From the IMG/VR virus record IMGVR_UViG_3300033475_000089: a DNA stretch of 38,009 bases; one strand, written 5' to 3'. The translations under genes were made by a program, and so were the position numbers. The notes beneath the pieces are model-generated. The model was not told the DNA's origin and made no database searches. It worked only from the letters and a program-made list of their open reading frames with translations. Shown here piece by piece: positions 4,984-23,281 of this stretch (positions within the stretch are counted from its first letter, which is position 1; every line of letters begins with the position of its first letter). This DNA is from a virus.

Positions 4984-5433
4984 ATGAAAGAGCTTTTTAA
5001 GGAAACTATATTCCGTATGTATATTGATAAAGACCAAGAATATTTGGCTTTTAGATTAATGTGCGGAAGTAATGATTATGTTATTTATCGAGCGGATGCG
5101 GGTTGTTGTTCTAAGTCTTGGTTTGAATCTATCTCTAATCCTGAATATCTTATAGGAAATGAGGTTATAGGAATAGAAGAGAAAGTAGAAAGAGAAGAAA
5201 CGGTACCAGAAACTGCTGAAATGGTAGAAAAAACTCTACGTATATATGGATATACATTAAAGACAGCGCAGGGTTACACTGATATTGAATTCCGTAATGA
5301 AAGTAATGGCTATTATGGAGGAAGGTGCGATCTGGTTGATGATCCGGAGTTAAAGGTAACTAGAGTAGCACCTGATCAGATTCAACTTTCTTTTGGCGAA
5401 CAAGGCAGTAAGATCATTCTATATCAGGTTTAA
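4984..5433 (+). CDS. Hypothetical protein
   Basis: The track ORF begins at a TTG at 4972. The ATG at 4984 (MKELFKE...) follows a GGGGA RBS. Confidence 0.65.
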   Translation: MKELFKETIFRMYIDKDQEYLAFRLMCGSNDYVIYRADAGCCSKSWFESISNPEYLIGNEVIGIEEKVEREETVPETAEMVEKTLRIYGYTLKTAQGYTDIEFRNESNGYYGGRCDLVDDPELKVTRVAPDQIQLSFGEQGSKIILYQV

Positions 5434-5558
5434 ACAAATTCCACTGTTGCCAAAAAAGAGCTTTAGGTATACCCTTATTTCTATATAAGTATAAATAAAA
5501 ACTCGGGCTCCCGATATAAATATCAAGAGCCCTAAAATTTTTAACTGTATGACAAAAT

Positions 5559-6338
5559 GTGTTTCCCGCACGTCATACCGAAAGGATTCAAAATGAATAT
5601 CACCCAGAACATATCAACTTACCGGAGGTATTTCATTTGAAGCATCTAAATTCTATCTTACCCTCATGCATAAGTCAACTACATTCTGCAAAAAACGCTG
5701 TAGTTACGCCAAAAAACCAATCAAACAGCCATAAACGTTACAATAAAAGATTAACTCCACAACAATGGCAGGAAAAAGAGCTCAGGCCTTTTGAGTTAGA
5801 GAATGAGTTAGTTCATCATATAACGAATAAACATGAGACATATCAAAAGCTAGTTAATGACCTTATATATCTATCAGCTCAGGGAATTATCATTGAAGTA
5901 AGCCAAGCATGGATAGCTGAACGCTTAGATATCTGTCTACGCCAGGCCAATAGACTTGTTGCTAACATGAAGGATGAAAAAGTAGGTGATACGTATACCC
6001 GTGGTATGGAGATGACAGCCATCACAAGATTAACGCCGATGTTAGCCAGACCATCCATATGGGCCAAGCTCCAAGATGTTCTACCGGTATGCAAATCATT
6101 AACCAAGGGTCTTATTCTTTATGTAGGATTACTCAGTTCTCCCAAAACCCTCTCTAAATGGGCACATGTCGTAGGATTAAAGAATAATTATTTATATATA
6201 AATAAAGAATATAAGAAGAATATACCTAGTACTCCTAAAATCATACAAGAAGAACCAAAAACTGGGCCACCTAAGGTGGCAGCTACCGCAGAGGAAGCAA
6301 AAAGGATAATTGACGCCTTCCTTGCTACATTGGGATAG
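5559..6338 (+). CDS. Putative DNA-binding or replication-associated protein; start uncertain
   Basis: 259-aa frame opening at a GTG. It has an HTH-like segment, VSQAWIAERLDICLRQANRLVANM. No convincing RBS or ATG lies near the 5' end, so the true start may be downstream. Confidence 0.45.
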   Translation: MFPARHTERIQNEYHPEHINLPEVFHLKHLNSILPSCISQLHSAKNAVVTPKNQSNSHKRYNKRLTPQQWQEKELRPFELENELVHHITNKHETYQKLVNDLIYLSAQGIIIEVSQAWIAERLDICLRQANRLVANMKDEKVGDTYTRGMEMTAITRLTPMLARPSIWAKLQDVLPVCKSLTKGLILYVGLLSSPKTLSKWAHVVGLKNNYLYINKEYKKNIPSTPKIIQEEPKTGPPKVAATAEEAKRIIDAFLATLG

Positions 6339-8574: not shown

Positions 8575-9942
8575 ATGAGTATACCTGTTGAGGCGATTAT
8601 CCACTTGGATAAGTTTAAGCCTCGTGACTATCAATTACCTATATTCGATGCGATAGAGAATAAGGGTTTCAAACGTGTAATAGCAATCCTTCCACGACGT
8701 GCTGGTAAAGATCTGGCCTGTTGGAATCTTCTTATTCGTGCTGCTATACGTAAAGTTGGTGTGTATTGGATGTGTTATCCCACCTACGCTCAAGGCAAGA
8801 AGATTCTCTGGGATTCAGTGACGAATGATGGTATGAGATTCCTGGATTATATTCCACCTCAACTCATTAAATCAGTAAACTCGCAAGAAATGAAAATTAG
8901 GCTAGTAGGGGGTAGCCTTTTACAAGTAGTAGGATCAGACAATGTTGATAATCTTGTTGGTACTAACGCTCGTGGGATTGTGTTCTCTGAATACGCGCTC
9001 CAGGATCCCCGAGCCTATCAATTACTTCGACCGGTACTCACAGCTAACGCTGGTTTCGCGGTCTTCATATCCACGCCCCGTGGTAAGAATAACTTATGGG
9101 AATTATACAACCTTGCACAGGCCAATCCCAACGAGTGGTTCGCCTACATGCTCACGGTGCACGAGACACAGCACATAGATCTTGAGCTTATTGAACAGGA
9201 ACGTCGATCTGGAGAGATGTCAGACGATATGATCGAACAAGAATATTTCTGCAGTTTTTCAGCTGGAGTAGAGGGAAGCTATTACGCTAAATACTTAGAT
9301 AAGATGCGCTTGAAAGGCCAGGTTGGTATCGTTCCATGGGAACCAACGATGAAAGTGCATACCGCATGGGATATCGGTTTAGATGGCACAGCAGTGATAT
9401 TCTTCCAGGTTGCAGGCCAGGTAGTTCGCGTTATAGATTACTACGAAAAGCCCAACATGCCTTTCGAATACTTTATAGAACTCGTACTCCAAAAGAAATA
9501 TCGTTATGGCAACCATTTTGGTCCACATGACTTGGAACATCGCGTCTATACTAACAGTGCAGCAGCTACAAGAAGAGAGCTTGCGCTCGATCTTGGTATT
9601 GAATTTCAGGTAATAGATCGTGATCTTATAGCTGATGGTATAGAACTCGTGCGTAAAACATTACCACGCATTTGGATTGATGAAGTAAATGCTCAGGGGT
9701 TAATACGCTGCCTAGAAAACTACCGCCAGGAATATGATGGTAAGCGCAAGATCTATAAGGGTAAGCCATTGCACGATAACTATAGTCATGGAGCAGATGC
9801 TTTACGCTATCTTTGCCAATCTTTATCACGCACCTCAGATTCTATATCTTCTAAAGAGCGTGAGTATCTTTATCGTGAGGCAATGTATGGTACAAGTAAT
9901 AGCAATATACCTGCAGCTCTGCGTGATGACGTATACTATTAG
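8575..9942 (+). CDS. terL: Terminase large subunit
   Basis: 455 aa. Walker A-like LPRRAGKD, Walker B-like GIVFSEY, nuclease-domain WDIGLDGTAVIFF and C-terminal HGADALRY. Preceded by GAGTAGTAATG. Confidence 0.85.
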   Translation: MSIPVEAIIHLDKFKPRDYQLPIFDAIENKGFKRVIAILPRRAGKDLACWNLLIRAAIRKVGVYWMCYPTYAQGKKILWDSVTNDGMRFLDYIPPQLIKSVNSQEMKIRLVGGSLLQVVGSDNVDNLVGTNARGIVFSEYALQDPRAYQLLRPVLTANAGFAVFISTPRGKNNLWELYNLAQANPNEWFAYMLTVHETQHIDLELIEQERRSGEMSDDMIEQEYFCSFSAGVEGSYYAKYLDKMRLKGQVGIVPWEPTMKVHTAWDIGLDGTAVIFFQVAGQVVRVIDYYEKPNMPFEYFIELVLQKKYRYGNHFGPHDLEHRVYTNSAAATRRELALDLGIEFQVIDRDLIADGIELVRKTLPRIWIDEVNAQGLIRCLENYRQEYDGKRKIYKGKPLHDNYSHGADALRYLCQSLSRTSDSISSKEREYLYREAMYGTSNSNIPAALRDDVYY

Positions 9943-18529: not shown

Positions 18530-18560
18530 AAAACTAGGTATATGTATCTAGGATAATATG

Positions 18561-18587
18561 GGGCTCCGCAAGGGGCCCTTTTATTTT
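18561..18587 (+). terminator. Rho-independent terminator with a GCAA tetraloop
   Basis: 7-bp stem gggctcc with ggggccc (18561-67 / 18572-78), loop GCAA, followed by ttttatttt. Confidence 0.75.
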
Positions 18588-18811
18588 ACTGGTGTCATTG
18601 GTCCATAGAATGGATGCTCAATGATATCTTCTTCAAATACTCGTGTATCTTTAACGTCATACAAACCAGGAAATCCTACTTTGTGTATGATGTGTCGCTC
18701 TAAAGCTTGTTCTAAAGTAATGCCATATTCATCTGCATAGCGCTCGTAGTAATCCATATGTTCTGCAGGAATTGCGATGAGCATACTGAGATATAAAATA
18801 ACTGAATTCAT
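18581..18811 (-). CDS. Hypothetical small protein with an N-terminal hydrophobic segment (start trimmed)
   Basis: An internal ATG gives MNSVILYLSMLIAIPAEH... (76 aa) with an AGGA RBS. The longer track start at 18874 has no RBS. Confidence 0.5.
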   Translation of the reverse strand: MNSVILYLSMLIAIPAEHMDYYERYADEYGITLEQALERHIIHKVGFPGLYDVKDTRVFEEDIIEHPFYGPMTPVK

Positions 18812-18920
18812 TTTTAATCCTAATAAGTGGACACCGGCACCCCGTGGTAGGTTATTGCACCATGCTGTCCACAATCGATAGTGAGCACAGGCCGATGTCG
18901 CAATTTTGAATCAAGTATAA

Positions 18921-19628
18921 CTAGATTTGCTTTTTAGTTCTATCTGCTTCTATTTCAGCCTTGGTTCTGCGTGGGTTCTTACGAACATAAGGCCTACGAT
19001 TGTTACAGTTTTCTTGATGCGTAACCCATCTACAGTTTGAAGGCTCATAGTTTCCATTGTTATCTATGCGATCCAGGGTTAATCCTTCTGGCCTATCTCC
19101 CATATCTGCATAAAAATTAACAAATTTACGCCAACGTTCACATACAGTTATACCTCTTGCGCCATAATCCTTATAACCGGTTGCATGTGGCGCGGTGCAA
19201 CGATTTATCATAGCTTGCCATGTTTTGTAAATAGATGTATTAATCATGCCATGCTTGGTATTTTTTGCTGCAATTTCTCTATTGTGGCATGTTCTACATT
19301 GTGTTGTTTTTCCTGATCTCAATTCTGATGCACATTGTAAAGCTCGATGTCCACAATCGCATTCTGCTTCATAACGCATAAGCTTTCTATGCATATCAAC
19401 ATATCTTATTATGGTCCATTTACCGTATTTTTTCCCTATTTCGTCTGCTGGGTTATGTAACATTCTGAGTTTGCAATCTACGCATTGAGTTCCACGACCT
19501 GCACGTAAATCAGTTCCTGCTTTTATACGAATATTTCCACATTCGCACATACATTCATAATGCTTTCCTGGTTTTTCACTGGGCCATTCAGCTAAAACTG
19601 TCCATTTGTGAAATGTCTTGCCAATCAT
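18921..19628 (-). CDS. Free-standing HNH-family homing endonuclease
   Basis: 235 aa. Two Cys-rich repeats (KWTV...C.C.CG......G..LR.G....C..C). C-terminal block IYKTWQAMINRC...YKDYGARGITVCERW...F..DMGDRP.GLTLDRIDNNGNYEPSNCRWVTHQENCNN. Confidence 0.75.
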   Translation of the reverse strand: MIGKTFHKWTVLAEWPSEKPGKHYECMCECGNIRIKAGTDLRAGRGTQCVDCKLRMLHNPADEIGKKYGKWTIIRYVDMHRKLMRYEAECDCGHRALQCASELRSGKTTQCRTCHNREIAAKNTKHGMINTSIYKTWQAMINRCTAPHATGYKDYGARGITVCERWRKFVNFYADMGDRPEGLTLDRIDNNGNYEPSNCRWVTHQENCNNRRPYVRKNPRRTKAEIEADRTKKQI

Positions 19629-19862
19629 TTTAAATTCATCCTATACTGTTAGTGGCAGTAATGAGAAGTCGCCATCCTCACATGACAGTATCTGAGTCTC
19701 GTCAACTCAAGACAGTACGCGGGAGTCGTCATCCCAAATCCACATGGTTTTAGTTTGTATTTACCACTGTTCTTTGAAATCTTTAGTTTACACCTAATGA
19801 TGATTATAATAACATGAAAAAATACAATTGAGTAGTAAAAAAAATAAAAAAAATAAGGAGAT

Positions 19863-20129
19863 ATGATGAGTATAACGACTACATCAAGTCTTCCTGCGCC
19901 GGTCCAGCAATCTTTTGCATACAAGTTGCTCGCCGTACCAATCCCCAATTTCATTCATAACTTAGCAGCAATGTATCAAGTTATGCCTAGACAAGGTGGT
20001 ACGACAATCCGCTTCCGCAGGTATAATCCATTAAATACGGCTATGGTGCCATTGGGTAACAGCGGTGTTACACCTCCACCACAAAATTTAACAGCTGTAG
20101 ATATCGATGCGAAGATAAGTTTTTACGGT
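19863..20129 (+). CDS. Major capsid protein (N4 gp56-type, HK97 fold), exon 1
   Basis: 89 codons ending ...AKISFYG. The blocks GGTTIRFRRYNPL and PLGNSGVTPPPQNL are typical of this MCP family. AAGGAG RBS. The exon ends in the U of the P1 U.G pair (tacggt with gccgta at 20136-41). Confidence 0.85.
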
Positions 20130-20374
20130 AAACGTGCCGTAACAGTTTATTGTTAAAGACGTATGTGACAATAAACGAGCAGGTTAATGATGGCCTGCTT
20201 TAAACCCACTCTGATTGACTTGGAACTCCTTATGGGACAACAAGGCGGAAGCGAAAGCACCGTGAACGACTAAGCGAGAGGGCGCGAAAGCGAAGCGATA
20301 GTCTGAACTCTATAGCAATATAGAGAGGGAACTCCGAAGAGGGATCCCCGCTCGAAAGAGTCATAAAGTAACAG
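20130..20374 (+). mobile_element. Group I intron 1 (ORF-less, 245 nt)
   Basis: P1 is tacggt|a with tgccgta. P2 is gtttattgt with acaataaac. P2.1 is agcagg with cctgct. It has the shared block gattgacttggaa (20213-25). P7 is GACTAA (20268-73) with GATAGTC (20297-303). P8 and P9 have GAAA and GCAA tetraloops. The intron ends ...gtaacaG. Confidence 0.7.
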
Positions 20375-20401
20375 ATTTGCACTTTACAAAATCAAGACCC
20401 T
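20375..20401 (+). CDS. Major capsid protein, exon 2 (27-nt micro-exon, ICTLQNQDP)
   Basis: In frame with exons 1 and 3. It ends in the U of the P1 U.G pair of intron 2 (agaccct with ggggtct at 20411-17). The junction gives ...QNQDP|VLNE..., restoring the DPVL.E block expected in this MCP family. Confidence 0.6.
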
Positions 20402-21206
20402 AAAAAATATGGGGTCTATAAACCGTCTCTGATTGACTTGGAAGCCTACGGCATTTGCTAGGGTGACAAGGGCCAAGGACGCGATTTGAATTTATTGTTT
20501 TAAAGGATGTAAGTGGAAGCGAGAATTAAGTTTACGAATCTCTTCAAAGCAAGTCTGACGAACTTCAAGGTTTTCTTTAGAAACTTTGTTGCTTCCAAGC
20601 CTTTCGGTGTAAGTTTTTCTAAACCTAATCATAATCTCACACTGTTTCTTCTTGATAGTAAGATAGGGCAGAATTTGTTCACAAAGATCGAGCAATCTAT
20701 CACCTGTGGCAATCCAACTGAATACTTCACGTGTGAATCTCTGAGTAGAGGTGGTACGTGTGGCAGCAGAGTTGGTTCCGCTAAAGGTTTGATTAAGCCA
20801 ATCTATAAGAACATAATCAGTATTATCAATCTTAAGAAGACCGCGATAATGTTCGCTTACATAGCCATCGCCCTTCTTTTTGGGAATGATGCCCATATAG
20901 AAACATCCTTCACCATCAACGATACCAGCCATATAGGCAAGATCGGTATCTTTGTAGATAGTTGGAACGTAATTTTCAGATCGTTTATAGTATTTGCGTC
21001 GTCGTGTTTCTTCCATAGGATACCTTATTTTATGGACCAGTTATATTATACAATTGTACACGATCATTTACTATTTGTCCAGGCTGAACGACTAAGTGAG
21101 ATGGGCTCGCAAGGGTATGCGATAGTCTGACCTGCATTCGAAAGATGCAGAGGTGAATCCGAAGAGGTTTGCCCGCCTAGAAATAGGTCACAAAAGTAAC
21201 AGAATG
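20402..21206 (+). mobile_element. Group I intron 2 (805 nt) carrying an antisense LAGLIDADG gene in the P6 region
   Basis: P1 is agaccct|a with tggggtct. P3 is gtctc with gagat. It has the shared block gattgacttggaa (20431-43). P7 is GACTAA (21090-95) with GATAGTC (21121-27). P8 has a GCAA loop and P9 a GAAA loop. The intron ends ...gtaacagaatG. Confidence 0.7.
20492..21016 (-). CDS. LAGLIDADG homing endonuclease (single-motif type), antisense to the host intron
   Basis: 174 aa. Motif LAYMAGIVDGEGCFYM and an ILPYLTIKKKQCE block. AAGG RBS, with a TATAAT on the minus strand at 21050-21045. Confidence 0.85.
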   Translation of the reverse strand: MEETRRRKYYKRSENYVPTIYKDTDLAYMAGIVDGEGCFYMGIIPKKKGDGYVSEHYRGLLKIDNTDYVLIDWLNQTFSGTNSAATRTTSTQRFTREVFSWIATGDRLLDLCEQILPYLTIKKKQCEIMIRFRKTYTERLGSNKVSKENLEVRQTCFEEIRKLNSRFHLHPLKQ

Positions 21207-21438
21207 GTATTAAACGAAGGTTCTCGCCGTCTTGGCGTATCTTTACGCCAAACTGAAGACCAGCTTACGCGCGATATGTTGCAATCAACCGCATCATTCA
21301 TCAATTGCGTTGGTGGCGTTAACGGTGATAGCCCAACTGAAATCACACGTAGTGATGTTGATACTGTTATTCAAGCCCTTATGGGAAATAACGCCTATAC
21401 CATCACTGACTTGATTCAAGGTGAAGACCGTTTTGGGT
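21207..21438 (+). CDS. Major capsid protein, exon 3
   Basis: VLNEGSRRLGVSLRQTEDQLTRDML...DLIQGEDRFG plus 1 nt. P1 of intron 3 is ttgggt (21433-38) with gcccaa (21446-51). The alternative exon end at 21439 is also frame-compatible. Confidence 0.75.
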
Positions 21439-21640
21439 TAATTTGGCCCAATTAAAATTTCTGGTAATTGACTTGGAAGCCTAAGGGAAACTATGGCGAC
21501 AAGGCGCAAGCAGCGTAAGCATGCAGCGTGAGAGACTAAACCCAGAAACACCGTAAGGTGATGTGATAGTCCGACCAGAGTTACGAAAGGCTCTGAGATG
21601 CACAGAAATGATGCATCCCCCATAAGGGAGTAACAAAGCG
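21439..21640 (+). mobile_element. Group I intron 3 (ORF-less, ~202 nt)
   Basis: P3 is tctgg with ccaga. It has the shared block attgacttggaa (21467-78). P7 is AGACTAAA (21532-40) with GATAGTCCGACC (21565-76), close to the Tetrahymena core AGACUAAA...GAUAUAGUCGGACC. P8 is cacc-GTAA-ggtg. The alternative boundaries 21440..21638 are also frame-compatible. Confidence 0.7.
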
Positions 21641-22044
21641 CAAGCCCCGTTCGTAATGCTTACCTAGCATTATGCCATACGGATCTGGTATCTAACTTGA
21701 ACAACGTTGCTGGATTTGCAAACGTAGCACAATACCCGAACAATAATAACGTTCCTGATTGTGAATATGGTGCAATTTCTAATCTACGTTTCCAAGTATC
21801 TTCTATTGGTGCGATTGCTGCTAATGCTTCAAGCCTTGGTAAGAATGTGTACTCCATATTCTGCACAGGCCGCGAAGCATATGCAAACGTAAAACAAGAA
21901 GGTTATGCAGACAGTTTCATTTATCGTTCACCGATCTACTCTGATCCATTGGCTCAGAATGCATCTATAGGTTGGAAGACTGCTATGGTCCCTCGCCTGT
22001 TGAACGATCTATGGTTAATCAATTTACGTTGCACCCTAGCATAA
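21641..22044 (+). CDS. Major capsid protein, exon 4
   Basis: (S)SPVRNAYLALCHTDLVSNL...SDPLAQNASIGWKTAMVPRLLNDLWLINLRCTLA. The DPLAQ...GWK...LN..W tail is characteristic of N4-type MCPs. The frame is open upstream of the track start (TTG at 21697) back to 21634. Confidence 0.8.
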
Positions 22045-22057
22045 GGAAAGGATTAAC

Positions 22058-23281
22058 ATGGATGGAACCGTTTTAGGTCAAGGTACCTTTTTAGCTAATT
22101 CAACTGGATTAGCTAACCCAAACCCAGGTAATGCTGAGATTGGACAAGCCAATACTGCCTATATTCAAATACCTTCAAACGCAGACTTTATGTGGGTGAG
22201 AAACTTCACTAAGTCTGGTGCTGCCGGTACTAATGCAGCCTATTTTAATGGGACTGCTAATGGTGCTGTAGGTGTTGAATTCTACTGGCAACGTGGTATG
22301 GCAGCTGGATCTGCATTTGTTAAATTTTATAGCAATGCTGGTCAAGCAATATCTGGTGATACGATAACTTCTGGCGGATTTACTTTGTATGATCCATCAG
22401 GTCAATCACAAGGTGCACAGCCATTACTTGGACCTGCTGTTGCAACGACTGCTTCTACAAACGCAACGCGTCCGGTAGTAAGTACAGCTGATACATCGGG
22501 TATTTCTGTAGGTACTGTTGTTCGTATGAGCAATAGTGCACAAACTGATGTTAATGGTGTTGATATGGTTGTAGGTGCTGTAACAGTAAATACAAGCTTC
22601 ACGCTTTTAGCAGCATCAAATGCTTTAGCTACCGCTCCAGGTGCTATTGGTGGAGCTGGCTTCTATCGCATTGTATACAATGCTAATAGTGAGCTATTCT
22701 ACCCACGTCGTCGTATTGTTACTAATATTACACGTGCGGTGAATGCACAAGTTAGTACTTCAGTTGCGCATGGATTAACTCCAGGCCAATCAGTACGCTT
22801 TAATATCCCTGCTGCATCAGGTATGATTCAACTTAATCCTCAATTAAATAATAACTATTTCCCTACAAGCGCAAGCCAATCTGCAGTAGTTGTTCAAGTA
22901 ATTGATGATTATAACTTTACGATCAACATTGATACAACTGCATATGATGCGTTCACATGGCCTACTATTGCACAGATGCCTTCTAACTTCCCTGAGGTTG
23001 TTCCTTTTGGTGAAGATACAGCTGCTGCTTTAGTAAGTCCATATAGCCAAACACCAACCATTGGCGGAAGCCAAATCTTCAATACTAATACAGGTATCCT
23101 TGCTGACTCAACAGTCAACACAGGCTATTTGGGTATGGTATTAGGAACTGGTGGTGCTGGCGCTATTCTTACAACTCCTATACTTGGTCCTTCTGGAACT
23201 ATTTCTTGGTCAGCAGGAAACGTTGCCACAAGTGACAGAATGTATTGGGTTGCAGGTAAATCGCAATTCGGTGGATTATAA
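22058..23281 (+). CDS. Virion structural protein of unknown role (Ala/Gly/Thr-rich, directly after the MCP)
   Basis: 407-aa ORF with an AAGGA RBS, 13 nt after the MCP stop. No family recognised. Confidence 0.7.
   Translation: MDGTVLGQGTFLANSTGLANPNPGNAEIGQANTAYIQIPSNADFMWVRNFTKSGAAGTNAAYFNGTANGAVGVEFYWQRGMAAGSAFVKFYSNAGQAISGDTITSGGFTLYDPSGQSQGAQPLLGPAVATTASTNATRPVVSTADTSGISVGTVVRMSNSAQTDVNGVDMVVGAVTVNTSFTLLAASNALATAPGAIGGAGFYRIVYNANSELFYPRRRIVTNITRAVNAQVSTSVAHGLTPGQSVRFNIPAASGMIQLNPQLNNNYFPTSASQSAVVVQVIDDYNFTINIDTTAYDAFTWPTIAQMPSNFPEVVPFGEDTAAALVSPYSQTPTIGGSQIFNTNTGILADSTVNTGYLGMVLGTGGAGAILTTPILGPSGTISWSAGNVATSDRMYWVAGKSQFGGL

Follow-up and report, generated by a model that had tools for sequence, protein, structure and literature searches.

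Organization of the Locus

The window, that is, the whole 38,009-nt stretch of DNA that was analysed, derives from an uncultured phage of about 38 kb, whose major capsid gene is interrupted four times (Table 1). Joining of all four junctions yields a 316-aa capsid protein that aligns end to end, and without gaps at the junctions, with 80 uninterrupted homologs. Its identity to annotated major capsid proteins is 24–28% over more than 88% of their length, and to isolate phages it is at most 28%; a nucleotide search against isolated phages returned no related genome, only three short matches of about 75% identity confined to the intron core. The interruptions comprise a 29-nt mini-insertion that lacks a ribozyme core and group I introns of a single family. 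The intron that carries an endonuclease gene on its opposite strand, called "intron 2" in a sequence-only reading of the locus, is in fact the third of the four interruptions. A first intron spanning 20130–20374, which would give ...FYG|ICTLQNQDP, was rejected because relatives show that 20159–20184 (TYVTINEQV) is coding. The capsid gene family as a whole has at least 8–10 insertion sites.

Table 1. Coordinates of the features discussed, with the basis of each assignment.
Feature	Position	Strand	Basis
Capsid exon 1a, residues 1–89, ...KISFYG	19863–20129	+	PHROG 1357 major head protein; collinear with uninterrupted homologs
Core-less 29-nt mini-insertion, ending in G	20130–20158	+	Homolog comparison; removal required for capsid frame
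Capsid micro-exon 1b, TYVTINEQV, 26 nt	20159–20184	+	Collinearity
ORF-less group I intron, same family; P1 AGCAGGU/GCCUGCU	20185–20379	+	Alignment row win_i1; pair counts
Capsid micro-exon 2, 22 nt; completes V, then TLQNQDP	20380–20401	+	Collinearity
Group I intron with endonuclease gene in P6a loop	20402–21206	+	Covariation over 44 introns; ligated exons collinear with 80 uninterrupted capsid genes
P1: exon AGACCCU (20395–20401) and internal guide GGGGUCU (20411–20417), U·G at 5′ splice site	20395–20417	+	Sequence; complementarity kept in relatives
5′ core half: P3 20423–20429, P4 20437–20440, P5 20445–20447/20461–20463, P4′ 20467–20470, P6 20471–20474, P6a 20477–20479	20423–20480	+	Pair counts
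LAGLIDADG homing endonuclease gene, I-CreI/I-MsoI type, single motif, 174 aa	20492–21016	−	ORF; homologs; invariant residues; PDB profile matches; AlphaFold model
Capsid-sense open frame, 205 codons, aligned codon for codon with the endonuclease gene opposite	20513–21130	+	ORF list
Shine-Dalgarno-like AAGG, 6 nt upstream of endonuclease ATG	21023–21026	−	Sequence; AGGA or AAGG at same place in relatives
Conserved −10 hexamer TACAAT	21053–21058	−	Aligns with TATAAT/TATACT in relatives
Conserved −35 hexamer TGGACA, overlapping 3′ strand of P6a	21076–21081	−	Position across 42 loci; P6a pairing
3′ core half: P6a′ 21078–21080, P6′ 21082–21085, P3′ 21098–21104, P8 21105–21108/21113–21116, P9 21132–21136/21146–21150, P9.1 21153–21159/21166–21172	21078–21172	+	Pair counts
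P7 (within 3′ core half): 21088 and 21090–21094 with 21123–21128, bulged C21089; pseudoknot with P3	21078–21172	+	Covariation
Terminal G (omega-G), last base before exon GTATTAAAC	21206	+	Reading frame; collinearity with uninterrupted homologs
Capsid exon 3, VLNEGS...GEDRFG	21207–21438	+	Collinearity
ORF-less group I intron, same family; P1 UUGGGU/GCCCAA	21439–21640	+	Alignment row win_i3; pair counts; junction via uninterrupted homologs
Capsid exon 4, SSPVRNAY... to stop	21641–22044	+	PHROG 1357; homolog alignment

The Host Intron

Judged by comparison with its relatives, the third interruption is a group I intron, the fold and junctions of which are supported by that comparison, whereas splicing itself is inferred, in the absence of splicing data. 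The 5′ splice site falls after U20401, at the U·G pair of P1, and the 3′ splice site after G21206, as the sequence-only reading had already placed them; the inferred 3′ end is a G in every aligned intron. Elsewhere in relatives, P1 has different sequences that are still complementary (AUCCCGU/GCGGGAU, AGAUCCU/GGGAUCU and CGAGGAU/GUCCUCG), and each of these helices, whether at another site or offset by 2 nt, ends in U·G. In our own alignment of 44 related introns, 92.1% of the cells in 43 pairs are paired, compared with 33–49% when the partners are slid; compensatory changes occur on both sides in 34 of the 43 pairs, and the observed covariation score was reached by none of 500 shuffles, which is a shuffle control and not a phylogeny-aware test. 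Pairing in the 5′ half of the core amounts to 86% of cells in P3, 100% in P4, 93% in P5 and 98% in P6/P6a, with compensatory changes present, and in the 3′ half to 100% in P7, where A-U/U-A/G-C covariation is seen at two pairs, 82% in P8, 100% in P9 and 81% in P9.1. The loop that holds the endonuclease ORF is closed by P6a (GGA at 20477–20479 with UCC at 21078–21080), in keeping with the earlier assignment of this ORF to a P6 loop.

No intron family of Rfam was matched, either in the whole window at the gathering threshold or in positions 19800–22100 at E ≤ 10, where only a chance match to CrcZ was obtained, and the identification of the intron thus rests on the comparative analysis given here. 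In view of the covariation, this result is read as a gap in the library's coverage of this subgroup of introns, as a consequence of which capsid genes of these phages will be mis-annotated as fragments.

The Endonuclease

The 174-aa ORF carries LAYMAGIVDGEGCF. Its LAGLIDADG helix motif, LAYMAGIVDGEG (residues 26–37), ends in a conserved acidic catalytic residue and aligns to the motif of I-MsoI and I-CreI. In 35 homologs, A27, Y28, A30, G31, D34, G35, E36 and G37 (AY.AG..DGEG) are invariant, as are P117, L119 and K122, and the invariant catalytic Asp stands in GIVDGEG; the family has at least 120 members. The match to Pfam LAGLIDADG_1 (PF00961) is below threshold (15.6 bits, E = 0.032; gathering score 23.1), and a precomputed PF00961 match is present in a few homologs. 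This shortfall is made up for by the profile of the 35 homologs, which matches I-MsoI (2.5e-9), I-CvuI (2.5e-6) and I-CreI (1e-5), and by comparison of folds. The AlphaFold model (pLDDT 81, pTM 0.77) has an alpha-beta-beta-alpha-beta-beta-alpha core (H23–36, E37–44, E56–65, H68–78, E81–85, E98–104, H105–118), and the top 30 Foldseek matches of this model are all I-CreI chains (E about 1e-9, TM 0.75–0.78). Family profile, fold and invariant motif thus confirm the minus-strand homing endonuclease ORF recognized from the letters alone, and an HMM assignment succeeds with the profile of homologs but not with the Pfam model.

The protein is under clear purifying selection, as judged from the invariant catalytic motif, the intact predicted fold and identities of 29–100%. 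The ORF is intact and conserved in relatives, where 63 non-identical genes, with identities as low as about 30%, all encode it at full length, and the degeneracy that would have told against a functional gene is not seen. The enzyme is of the I-CreI type with a single LAGLIDADG motif, and is presumably a homodimer.

Orientation of the Endonuclease Gene

The endonuclease gene is opposite to the capsid gene in all of about 70 related loci in which both can be placed. Among introns found by the motif of the intron core alone, a sample that was not selected via the endonuclease, 15 of the 16 that bear an ORF carry it antisense and one (L249) carries it in the sense direction. Over 100 independent contigs from JGI, ENA, NCBI and Logan samples show the inverted arrangement, and this recurrence, together with a family of at least 120 members, places the arrangement beyond chance. 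In this intron family the antisense orientation is the norm and the sense orientation, seen in L249 only, is the exception. The antisense layout proposed in the sequence-only reading is thereby established, and its premise that intron-borne endonuclease genes are normally in the sense direction stands as a general rule but does not hold within this family. Both informative kinds of relative named in that reading exist, namely introns without the ORF, which make up 71 of about 90 classifiable members of the family, and the one with a sense ORF.

Promoter and Ribosome-Binding Site

Because transcripts of the capsid gene contain only the complement of the endonuclease gene, the latter has to be transcribed from a promoter of its own on the opposite strand. 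The element TGGACA-17 nt-TACAAT (21081–21053) matches the consensus at 10 of 12 positions. In the close clade the −10 hexamer always lies 36 nt from the ATG, and in most of 42 loci the −35 hexamer starts 8 nt past the complement of P7 and is followed by a 17-nt spacer, its position being fixed relative to P7/P6. Scores of at least 9 of 12 were obtained on the endonuclease strand in 31 of the 42 loci, whereas the other strand reached them in 3 of 42 and shuffles in 13%; for scores of at least 10 the corresponding values are 21, 0 and 1.7%, and the mean best scores are 9.36, 7.33 and 7.43. Promoter-like sites are no more numerous in the region overall than chance would give, and it is conservation alone that singles out this candidate. 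Conservation of the −35 hexamer is partly structural, since the hexamer is also constrained by pairing in P6a. TGGACA-17-TACAAT is likely to be the promoter of the endonuclease gene, its activity being inferred and recognition of the sigma-70 type being assumed, as the host is unknown.

The independent transcription postulated in the sequence-only reading is consequently supported by a conserved promoter-like element, although no transcript data are available. The TATAAT to which the promoter had been assigned (21050–21045, minus strand) is present but is not conserved in relatives; the conserved hexamers lie 8 nt upstream, and their −35, TGGACA, is not the weak one described before. The proposed ribosome-binding site AAGG (21026–21023, minus strand) is found as described and recurs, as AGGA or AAGG, at the same place in relatives.

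The Capsid-Sense Frame Opposite the Endonuclease Gene

The open frame on the capsid strand is preceded by TAA-AGG-ATG-TAA-GTG (20501–20515), which is the complement of the C-terminal HLHPL of the endonuclease, and it terminates at a UGA in P7 3′/J7-9. Codons TTA, CTA and TCA occur 42 times in antisense endonuclease genes, compared with 421 expected, and this approximately tenfold avoidance keeps the capsid-sense frame open. A general avoidance of rare codons was rejected as the cause, because other A-ending codons are freely used in the endonuclease gene of the window, the trinucleotides TTA, CTA and TCA are abundant out of frame in endonuclease genes, and a sense-oriented homolog uses them normally. 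In the close clade, a Shine-Dalgarno-like AAGGA and a start codon precede the sense frame, the start and C-terminal end of which vary widely between loci. The base composition of the sense loop, inspected for a C-rich, G-poor Rho-loading signal, shows nothing notable.

The 29-nt Mini-Insertion

The mini-insertion can form a P1-like hairpin, UACGGU (exon)/GCCGUA, with U·G at the junction, and a second helix in which GUUUAUUGU pairs with exon ACAAUAAAC. Core-less mini-introns of 28–57 nt lie just upstream of a full intron and never occur without one. A scan with the pattern TACGGT..GTGCCGTA was dropped as too unspecific (1 true match in 118), and a longer pattern identified 92 stretches, 89 of which are in homologous capsid genes; the last triplets of the mini-insertions are AAG, ATG, TTG or TAG. 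Ribosomal bypass was rejected, because no landing triplet matches the take-off GGU, as were programmed frameshifting, which meets a stop at 20129–20131 in the −1 frame, and read-through, which adds 9 residues absent from all homologs. Since the boundaries follow the rules of group I introns, with U·G in the P1-like hairpin and a terminal G, it is more likely, as far as sequence can indicate, that the mini-insertion is removed by RNA splicing than by ribosomal bypass.

The stop-free frame and the mini-insertion may be accounted for by a joint proposal, in which the sense loop is translated as a "shield" ORF and the mini-introns are spliced with the core of their neighbour. In the first part, the codon choice of the endonuclease gene would hold the sense frame open over the loop of about 600 nt, and ribosomes would shelter this long unstructured insert of the late capsid transcript, either against Rho-dependent termination or against the antisense mRNA that could pair with it. 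In the second, the mini-introns would be genuine group I introns of which only a P1 hairpin and the terminal G are left, and their splicing would be performed by the catalytic core of the neighbouring full intron. This proposal is tentative, and we think it somewhat more apt to fail than to hold; if true, either the shield ORF or the borrowed core would be without a described precedent among group I introns.

Mobility and Proposed Model

At least 80 of 481 capsid homologs in IMG/VR are without any intron, and the QDP|V site that is occupied in the window holds an ORF-less intron in L186. The same endonuclease family is found in introns at several other capsid sites, and occupancy of several different sites implies that the element has moved repeatedly. 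Candidate targets are the uninterrupted capsid alleles, such as ...CAAAACCAAGACCCTGTTCTTAACGAA... and ...TTACAAAACCAAGACCCTGTTCTTAACGAATGTGCA..., in which the two-fold symmetry expected for the site of a homodimeric enzyme is a weak signal (4.96 matches of 11; background 2.84 ± 1.47). The phage also has a gene for an Erf-like recombinase (939–1685).

Taken together, these features are best explained by a mobile group I intron that carries a backwards endonuclease gene in its P6a loop and expresses it from its own promoter, a reading to which we give a probability of about 0.78 and in which promoter activity and timing, cleavage and homing are inferred. On the capsid strand, the ribozyme, P1 to P9.1, would excise the whole element from the pre-mRNA. 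On the other strand, a promoter with a −35 hexamer formed by the 3′ strand of P6a would give rise to an endonuclease mRNA that has its own Shine-Dalgarno sequence. Host RNA polymerase probably makes this mRNA ahead of late transcription or without regard to it, so that synthesis of the enzyme may be uncoupled from late capsid expression; convergent transcription would probably damp the endonuclease late. The enzyme would then cut intron-less alleles of co-infecting relatives at the conserved coding site ...QNQDP|VLNE..., and recombinational repair, for which the phage encodes an annealing protein of the Erf type, would copy the intron in. The suggestions of the sequence-only reading that antisense RNA acts on the capsid pre-mRNA, or that the endonuclease belongs to a different phase of infection, remain untested inferences.

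Alternative Explanations

The antisense transcript could instead be mainly a regulator, which pairs with the capsid pre-mRNA or with the excised intron and controls splicing or capsid yield, the protein being secondary. Such a transcript would match, base for base, about 600 nt of the intron loop and, if unterminated, the upstream exons too, and there is a precedent in phage S-PM2, in which an antisense RNA links the intron-containing psbA gene and an endonuclease gene (Millard et al., 2010, cited in PMC3428280). This explanation is nevertheless unlikely, because the protein is clearly under purifying selection, with its catalytic motif invariant and its fold intact, and because the predominance of ORF-less introns indicates that antisense RNA is not needed for splicing.

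It is quite improbable that the capsid-sense ORF is the functional gene, for example one encoding a maturase-like protein, and the endonuclease frame only its lesser overlapping partner. The lack of stops in the sense frame goes far past what is expected, and the frame's AAGGA and start codon in the close clade would suit a gene, but the antisense frame is unmistakably a LAGLIDADG enzyme, whereas the sense product has no family match (a family profile did not match it) and has a composition resembling the complement of a Lys/Glu/Asn-rich gene. The widely varying ends of the sense ORF fit a product that is translated but irrelevant in sequence better than a conserved protein.

Very little speaks for the inverted gene being a dead or decaying, unexpressed passenger whose orientation arose by neutral chance and became fixed a single time, in an ancestor. 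A single inversion inherited by descent could explain many loci, and decay after fixation is common for homing endonuclease genes, but the full-length ORFs in diverged genes, the conserved promoter and ribosome-binding site, the strongly shaped codon usage and the repeated movement all contradict it. Still harder to maintain is the view that denies the intervening sequence the status of a self-splicing group I intron and takes the capsid gene to be fragmented or otherwise processed. It can appeal to the lack of an Rfam match and of a splicing experiment, but has to set aside the U·G in P1 at the 5′ junction, the terminal G, the helices P3–P9.1 with the P3/P7 pseudoknot backed by covariation, and the gap-free capsid protein restored by junctions that were drawn from group I rules. 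Inversion of the segment by mis-assembly, which the sequence-only reading had allowed for and which is conceivable in a metagenomic contig, is practically excluded by the same layout in more than 100 contigs from four sources (JGI, ENA, NCBI and Logan) and by the overlap of promoter and P6a, which is sensible only in this orientation.

Comparison with Known Systems

I-CreI, I-MsoI and I-CvuI are homodimeric LAGLIDADG homing endonucleases of group I introns in chloroplast 23S rRNA. The enzyme of the window resembles them in its single LAGLIDADG motif, its length of about 170 aa, its core fold and its encoding by a group I intron. It differs in having only about 20% identity to them, a phage capsid gene as host, a position on the strand opposite to the intron, a probable promoter of its own of bacterial type, and a target that is not clearly palindromic.

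I-TevI is a GIY-YIG enzyme whose gene lies on the sense strand, its transcript forming part of the sense RNA or falling within it. Its intron, the td intron of T4, is like that of the window a phage group I intron in which the endonuclease ORF is looped out of the P6 region, whereas the gene of the window runs the other way and has its likely promoter within the complement of P6a. In both systems, by inference in that of the window, dedicated promoters separate expression of the intron endonuclease from that of the host gene (for the promoters and regulation of T4 intron endonucleases, see PMC2988022).

The one documented precedent for the antisense layout is I-DirII of a nuclear rDNA group I intron of Didymium iridis, the gene of which is antisense to the intron and has its own promoter (Johansen et al., 2006, cited in PMC3073962). 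Unlike the system of the window, I-DirII stems from a eukaryotic nucleus, is expressed by way of a Pol II promoter together with a spliceosomal intron and a poly(A) tail, and belongs to another enzyme family, and it is a single case, whereas the present layout characterizes a large family. The words antisense, opposite and orientation are absent from a 2014 review of bacterial group I introns (PMC3984707). In the literature that was searched, antisense endonuclease genes were found only for the nuclear rDNA intron, and none for introns of phages or bacteria.

Several related group I introns with very short exons between them are known from orf142 of phage Twort and from other phage genes. The capsid gene of the window shares with orf142 the presence of several such introns in one phage structural gene, and is distinguished from genes of this type by micro-exons of 22 and 26 nt and by the core-less 29-nt insertion. 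We know of no counterpart to this insertion, and a search of the literature for core-less group I mini-introns found none. Introns in capsid genes have been described in Cluster J mycobacteriophages (PMC3706429). The 50-nt coding gap of T4 gene 60, which is accompanied by the mobA endonuclease gene (bioRxiv 10.1101/2022.08.31.505936), is similar to the mini-insertion in being a non-coding insert of tens of nucleotides in an essential phage gene that is associated with an endonuclease and is skipped for the protein. The gap of gene 60 has matched take-off and landing codons (GGA...GGA), whereas the GGU of the mini-insertion has no matching landing triplet.

The separation by strand of endonuclease and capsid expression bears on how these elements limit their cost to an essential and very highly expressed late gene. 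The stop-free sense frame would extend what is known of the coexistence of introns with translation-coupled gene expression in bacteria, and core-less mini-introns would do the same for minimal ribozyme substrates. Mobile group I introns of phages are textbook selfish elements, the endonuclease genes of which are described as sense-strand passengers. The large environmental phage lineage considered here, represented by over 100 contigs and, in IMG/VR, by 481 capsid homologs, has the opposite design: the gene runs backwards, and its likely promoter is merged with a helix of the ribozyme. This lineage offers a natural system in which the strand physically separates endonuclease expression from that of intron and host gene.

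The interrupted capsid gene

Around the endonuclease ORF, the plus strand encodes the major capsid protein (PHROG 1357) in pieces, whose exon/intron map was drawn by comparison with relatives (see table). The joined exons specify 316 residues. Relatives of this protein are encoded in 481 IMG/VR stretches, and the best 80 of these each align in one uninterrupted frame, from residue 1 or 2 to residue 316, with every junction free of gaps (for example, IDAKISFYGTYVTINEQVTLQNQDPVLNEG with IDAKISFYGTYVILNEQVTLQNQDPVLNEC); annotated capsid proteins of isolated phages share 24-28% identity across more than 88% of the length. The coordinates that the sequence-only reading assigned to the endonuclease-bearing intron were exact, but its name, "intron 2", undercounts the interruptions of the gene.

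Just upstream of the capsid gene lies a second, free-standing endonuclease gene of the HNH type (PHROG 374, E = 1e-68), followed by a 97-aa ORF that has no family match. This minus-strand two-gene module, which is downstream of the intron's endonuclease gene on the same strand, breaks up the plus-strand structural operon and is preceded by a terminator-like hairpin. Approximately 215 nt before the capsid start codon there is a promoter-like sequence (TTGCCA-18 nt-TATACT, 10/12), which overlaps the beginning of the divergent HNH gene.

Features of the capsid locus and its surroundings
Feature	Coordinates	Strand	Remark
Terminator-like hairpin	18560-18579	+	
97-aa ORF	18581-18874	-	
HNH endonuclease gene	18921-19628	-	
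Promoter-like sequence	19618-19647	+	
Capsid exon 1a	19863-20129	+	
29-nt insertion	20130-20158	+	
Capsid micro-exon 1b	20159-20184	+	
Intron	20185-20379	+	without ORF
Capsid micro-exon 2	20380-20401	+	
Endonuclease-bearing intron	20402-21206	+	
Endonuclease ORF	20492-21016	-	174 codons
Open sense frame	20513-21130	+	205 codons
Ribosome-binding site (plausible)	21026-21023	-	AAGG
Putative -10	21058-21053	-	TACAAT
Putative -35	21081-21076	-	TGGACA
Capsid exon 3	21207-21438	+	
Intron	21439-21640	+	without ORF
Capsid exon 4	21641-22044	+	

Fold of the host intron

Rfam returned no intron, either at gathering scores over the whole window or at E <= 10 over 19800-22100, and the fold was therefore tested directly by comparative alignment of 42 non-identical endonuclease-bearing introns, with the ORF excised, and the window's two ORF-less introns. 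RNAalifold recovered P3, P4, P5, P6, P6a, P8, P9 and P9.1, and P7 was added to this structure as a pseudoknot. Standard pairs fill 92.1% of 1883 cells, a share that falls to 33-49% once the 3' partners are shifted by 1-3 columns, and 34 of the 43 intron pairs have changed on both sides. The covariation score is 0.597, a value reached by none of 500 shuffles (0.198 +/- 0.009). P7 is 100% paired, with a bulged base and A-U/U-A/G-C alternation at two pairs; P2 is absent, and nothing intervenes between P7 and P3'. P1, formed by the last exon bases and the guide sequence and ending in U.G (AGACCCU/GGGGUCU in the window), differs strongly in sequence yet stays complementary in relatives whose insertion point is 2 nt further along or elsewhere. 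The last base of the endonuclease-bearing intron is G21206. The pair counts, the covariation, P1 with its U.G and the terminal G make a strong sequence-based case for a group I intron, though the curated Rfam library does not see it.

The endonuclease ORF lies within the loop of P6a (GGA 20477-20479 with UCC 21078-21080), in keeping with the earlier supposition that it occupies the P6 loop. In several loci (L020, L021, L023, L034-L037 and others), the antisense ORF overruns the complement of P6, P4' and P5, giving C-terminal tails such as ...SALLPVS, so that coding and ribozyme-core sequence overlap on opposite strands.

Identity of the endonuclease

The ORF bears the motif LAYMAGIVDGEGCF. The HMM check proposed earlier fell short with Pfam LAGLIDADG_1 (15.6 bits; threshold 23.1) but succeeded with a profile built from 35 homologs, which matched the solved structures of I-MsoI (2.5e-9), I-CvuI (2.5e-6) and I-CreI (1e-5). 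At least 120 homologs have 35-100% identity, and AY.AG..DGEG, P117, L119 and K122 are invariant in the alignment of 35. The AlphaFold model (pLDDT 81, pTM 0.77) has an alpha-beta-beta-alpha-beta-beta-alpha core and superposes on I-CreI chains (E approximately 1e-9, TM 0.75-0.78). Despite the sub-threshold Pfam score, these homologs, invariant residues, profile matches and predicted fold make the LAGLIDADG assignment secure, and the minus-strand 174-aa ORF noted earlier is confirmed as such. Sequence and model indicate a single-motif enzyme of the I-CreI type. Enzymes of this type are homodimers.

Orientation and distribution in relatives

Related loci were retrieved through the endonuclease protein, and the capsid exons were then placed on them. 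The capsid gene is opposite in strand to the endonuclease in all of the approximately 70 loci where both were placed, at endonuclease identities from 86% to approximately 30%. Members of this endonuclease family are found in introns at several positions of the capsid gene, namely behind QDP (two registers, offset by 2 nt), behind NEQV, close to residue 177 and elsewhere, and are inverted at each. To remove the ascertainment bias of endonuclease-based sampling, IMG/VR was searched with the intron's J3/4-P4 motif alone, which yielded 128 intron copies in 119 stretches. An ORF is lacking in 71 copies, and 16 have a 500-670-nt insertion in the P6 region with an ORF of at least 80 aa; the endonuclease family is antisense in 15 of these 16 and sense in one (locus L249). 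The antisense arrangement noted in the sequence-only reading thus holds in both samples and is the norm within this intron family. In the comparison with related phages proposed there, empty alleles, ORF-less introns (one, in locus L186, at the exact window site) and the sense-oriented version all exist.

In L249, the one intron of the family with its endonuclease gene in sense, the LAGLIDADG gene lies in the P6 loop (reverse strand, ~5430-6000 of the reversed locus), and its ORF extends into P6'/P7.

There are at least 8-10 intron sites within this capsid family. At the QDP/V site, the 5' splice sites of the window, L014 and L018 and of L001-L013 are 2 nt apart (after ...GACCCU versus after ...GAUCCCGU); the endonuclease genes share 75-86% identity, and in each intron P1 and the 3' exon phase match accordingly. 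The offset could have arisen by sliding of the intron or by separate insertions at neighbouring positions. Locus L256 (reverse strand, ~8916-9270 of the reversed locus) also has an intron at the same capsid site; instead of the endonuclease gene, its P6 loop holds an insertion of ~150 nt with a small ORF on the sense strand that encodes two CxxC pairs (MECNKCKKF...CDQCSHEF...). At least 119 IMG/VR contigs (L171-L289), of up to 367 kb, contain the intron-core motif CTRATTGACTTGGAA. Only 40 of them contain this capsid family, and the family of introns is therefore widely distributed among other genes and phages, jumbo phages included, all invisible to Rfam.

Expression of the inverted gene

Since transcripts of the capsid gene carry the endonuclease gene only as its complement, a minus-strand promoter is required. 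Promoter-like sites occur over the region as a whole in chance-level number, and the best, TGGACA-17 nt-TACAAT on the minus strand (10/12), is singled out by conservation rather than by site count: relatives have TGGACA/TAGACA/TTGACT, 17 nt and TATAAT/TACAAT/TATACT at the same position. Over 42 non-identical loci, the mean best score of 12 is 9.36 on the endonuclease strand (at least 9 in 31 loci, at least 10 in 21), 7.33 on the opposite strand (3 and 0 loci) and 7.43 in shuffles (13% and 1.7%). In most loci the -35 starts 8 nt past the complement of P7, with a 17-nt spacer. The -35 hexamer is the complement of the 3' strand of P6a, and therefore one sequence serves ribozyme and promoter. The conserved -10 lies 8 nt upstream of the TATAAT (21050-21045) taken earlier for the promoter, and that TATAAT is not itself conserved; the AAGG proposed as ribosome-binding site remains plausible.

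No ORF in the window is big enough for a phage RNA polymerase, the largest encoding portal, virion and tail proteins, and transcription by the host RNA polymerase is therefore plausible. The promoter may be early or constitutive, and strong late capsid transcription would run into it and damp it. Termination of the endonuclease mRNA might be aided by the complement of the P1 hairpin together with the UUGAUUUUG behind it (~20417-20385, minus strand).

An open frame opposite the endonuclease gene

The plus-strand frame opposite the endonuclease gene is in exact codon register with it, and stops could arise in that register only from the endonuclease codons TTA, CTA and TCA. Their share of codons is 1.30% in 63 non-identical endonuclease genes from introns and 4.91% in the capsid exons of the same loci; out of frame, the same trinucleotides reach 9.2% and 6.6%, respectively. 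One endonuclease clade uses them normally. Without it, 54 genes (9077 codons) contain 42, as against 421.5 +/- 17.7 predicted from capsid synonymous usage; leucine is TTA in 3.8% (capsid exons, 25.7%) and serine TCA in 1.1% (26.5%). The rare exceptions cluster within the last ~10 codons. Because usage is normal in free-standing homologs and in the sense-oriented copy of L249 (10 of 160 codons), and the window's gene makes free use of other codons ending in A, codon usage indicates that selection keeps the capsid-sense frame open across the inverted gene.

The codons for the conserved C-terminal H-x-H-P-L of the window's clade appear on the complementary strand as TAA-AGG-ATG-xxx-ATG/GTG (window 20501-20515), a sequence made up of a stop, an AAGGA resembling a Shine-Dalgarno sequence and a start. 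In eight loci the frame stays open across the ribozyme's 3' half and reaches the capsid exon downstream. As the frame varies in where it starts and ends, a second functional protein is the less likely explanation. The cause is not certain, and the best guess is protection by translation: ribosomes would translate the sense RNA of the P6a loop, and thereby shield a 600-nt unstructured insert of the late operon from Rho-dependent termination or pairing with antisense mRNA.

Proposed mini-introns

The 29-nt insertion lies between ...TTT TAC GGT and ACG TAT GTG..., contains a stop and breaks the frame, and uninterrupted capsid homologs read FYGTY continuously across this point. Insertions of 28-57 nt are common at this position: a pattern scan found 92 stretches, 89 of them within homologous capsid genes, and IMG/VR holds 79 distinct sequences (copies also in L001, L004, L014 and L048). 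The preceding glycine codon is GGT without exception, every insertion ends in G, and the exon end pairs with the insertion in covarying fashion (UACGGU/GCCGUA, UUCGGU/GCCGAA, UAUGGU/GCCAUA, UUUGGU/GCCAAA), leaving U.G at the junction, features that conform to group I rules. There are two classes. In one, a second helix of 8-11 bp, for which compensatory variants are numerous, is formed with codons 3-6 of the micro-exon that follows; the other keeps a CTGATT remnant of the P3-J3/4 region. None of the insertions contains a catalytic core. All 66 complete genes with a mini-insertion have at least 250 nt of additional intron sequence, with a recognisable core in 63, and in no gene is the mini-insertion the sole interruption. 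Bypass by the ribosome, as in gene 60, is unlikely, as no landing codon matches. It is proposed that the mini-insertions are internally deleted group I introns that may survive through the core of a neighbouring intron; the literature search found no precedent for such core-borrowing mini-introns.

Mobility

The insertion site lies between LQNQDP and VLNE, among the most conserved stretches of the capsid protein; its dyad symmetry is weak. Many intron-less capsid alleles coexist in nature (IMG/VR), and the phage encodes an Erf-type annealing protein. Conserved target, intron-less alleles and annealing protein together are the standard setting for homing, for which there are no cleavage data.

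Comparison with known systems

The only literature precedent found for an inverted endonuclease gene with its own promoter is I-DirII of a Didymium nuclear rDNA intron, which has a Pol II promoter (PMC3073962). A T4 review discusses antisense orientation for free-standing endonuclease genes only (PMC2988022), and orientation goes unmentioned in a 2014 review of group I introns in bacteria (PMC3984707).

With the promoter moved to TGGACA-17-TACAAT, the overall interpretation reached from sequence alone is supported. The main finding, an antisense endonuclease in a capsid intron, is solid and extends known biology; the open sense frame and the mini-introns are more surprising and still hypotheses. 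The literature search found no description of the arrangement, in which the endonuclease gene is inverted throughout the family, has its promoter fused with P6a and is recoded so that the opposite strand stays open. Its parts are familiar: the enzyme works like I-CreI, meeting the membership tests that could be run except the Pfam threshold, and the intron, like T4 td, is a phage group I intron with an ORF looped out of P6.
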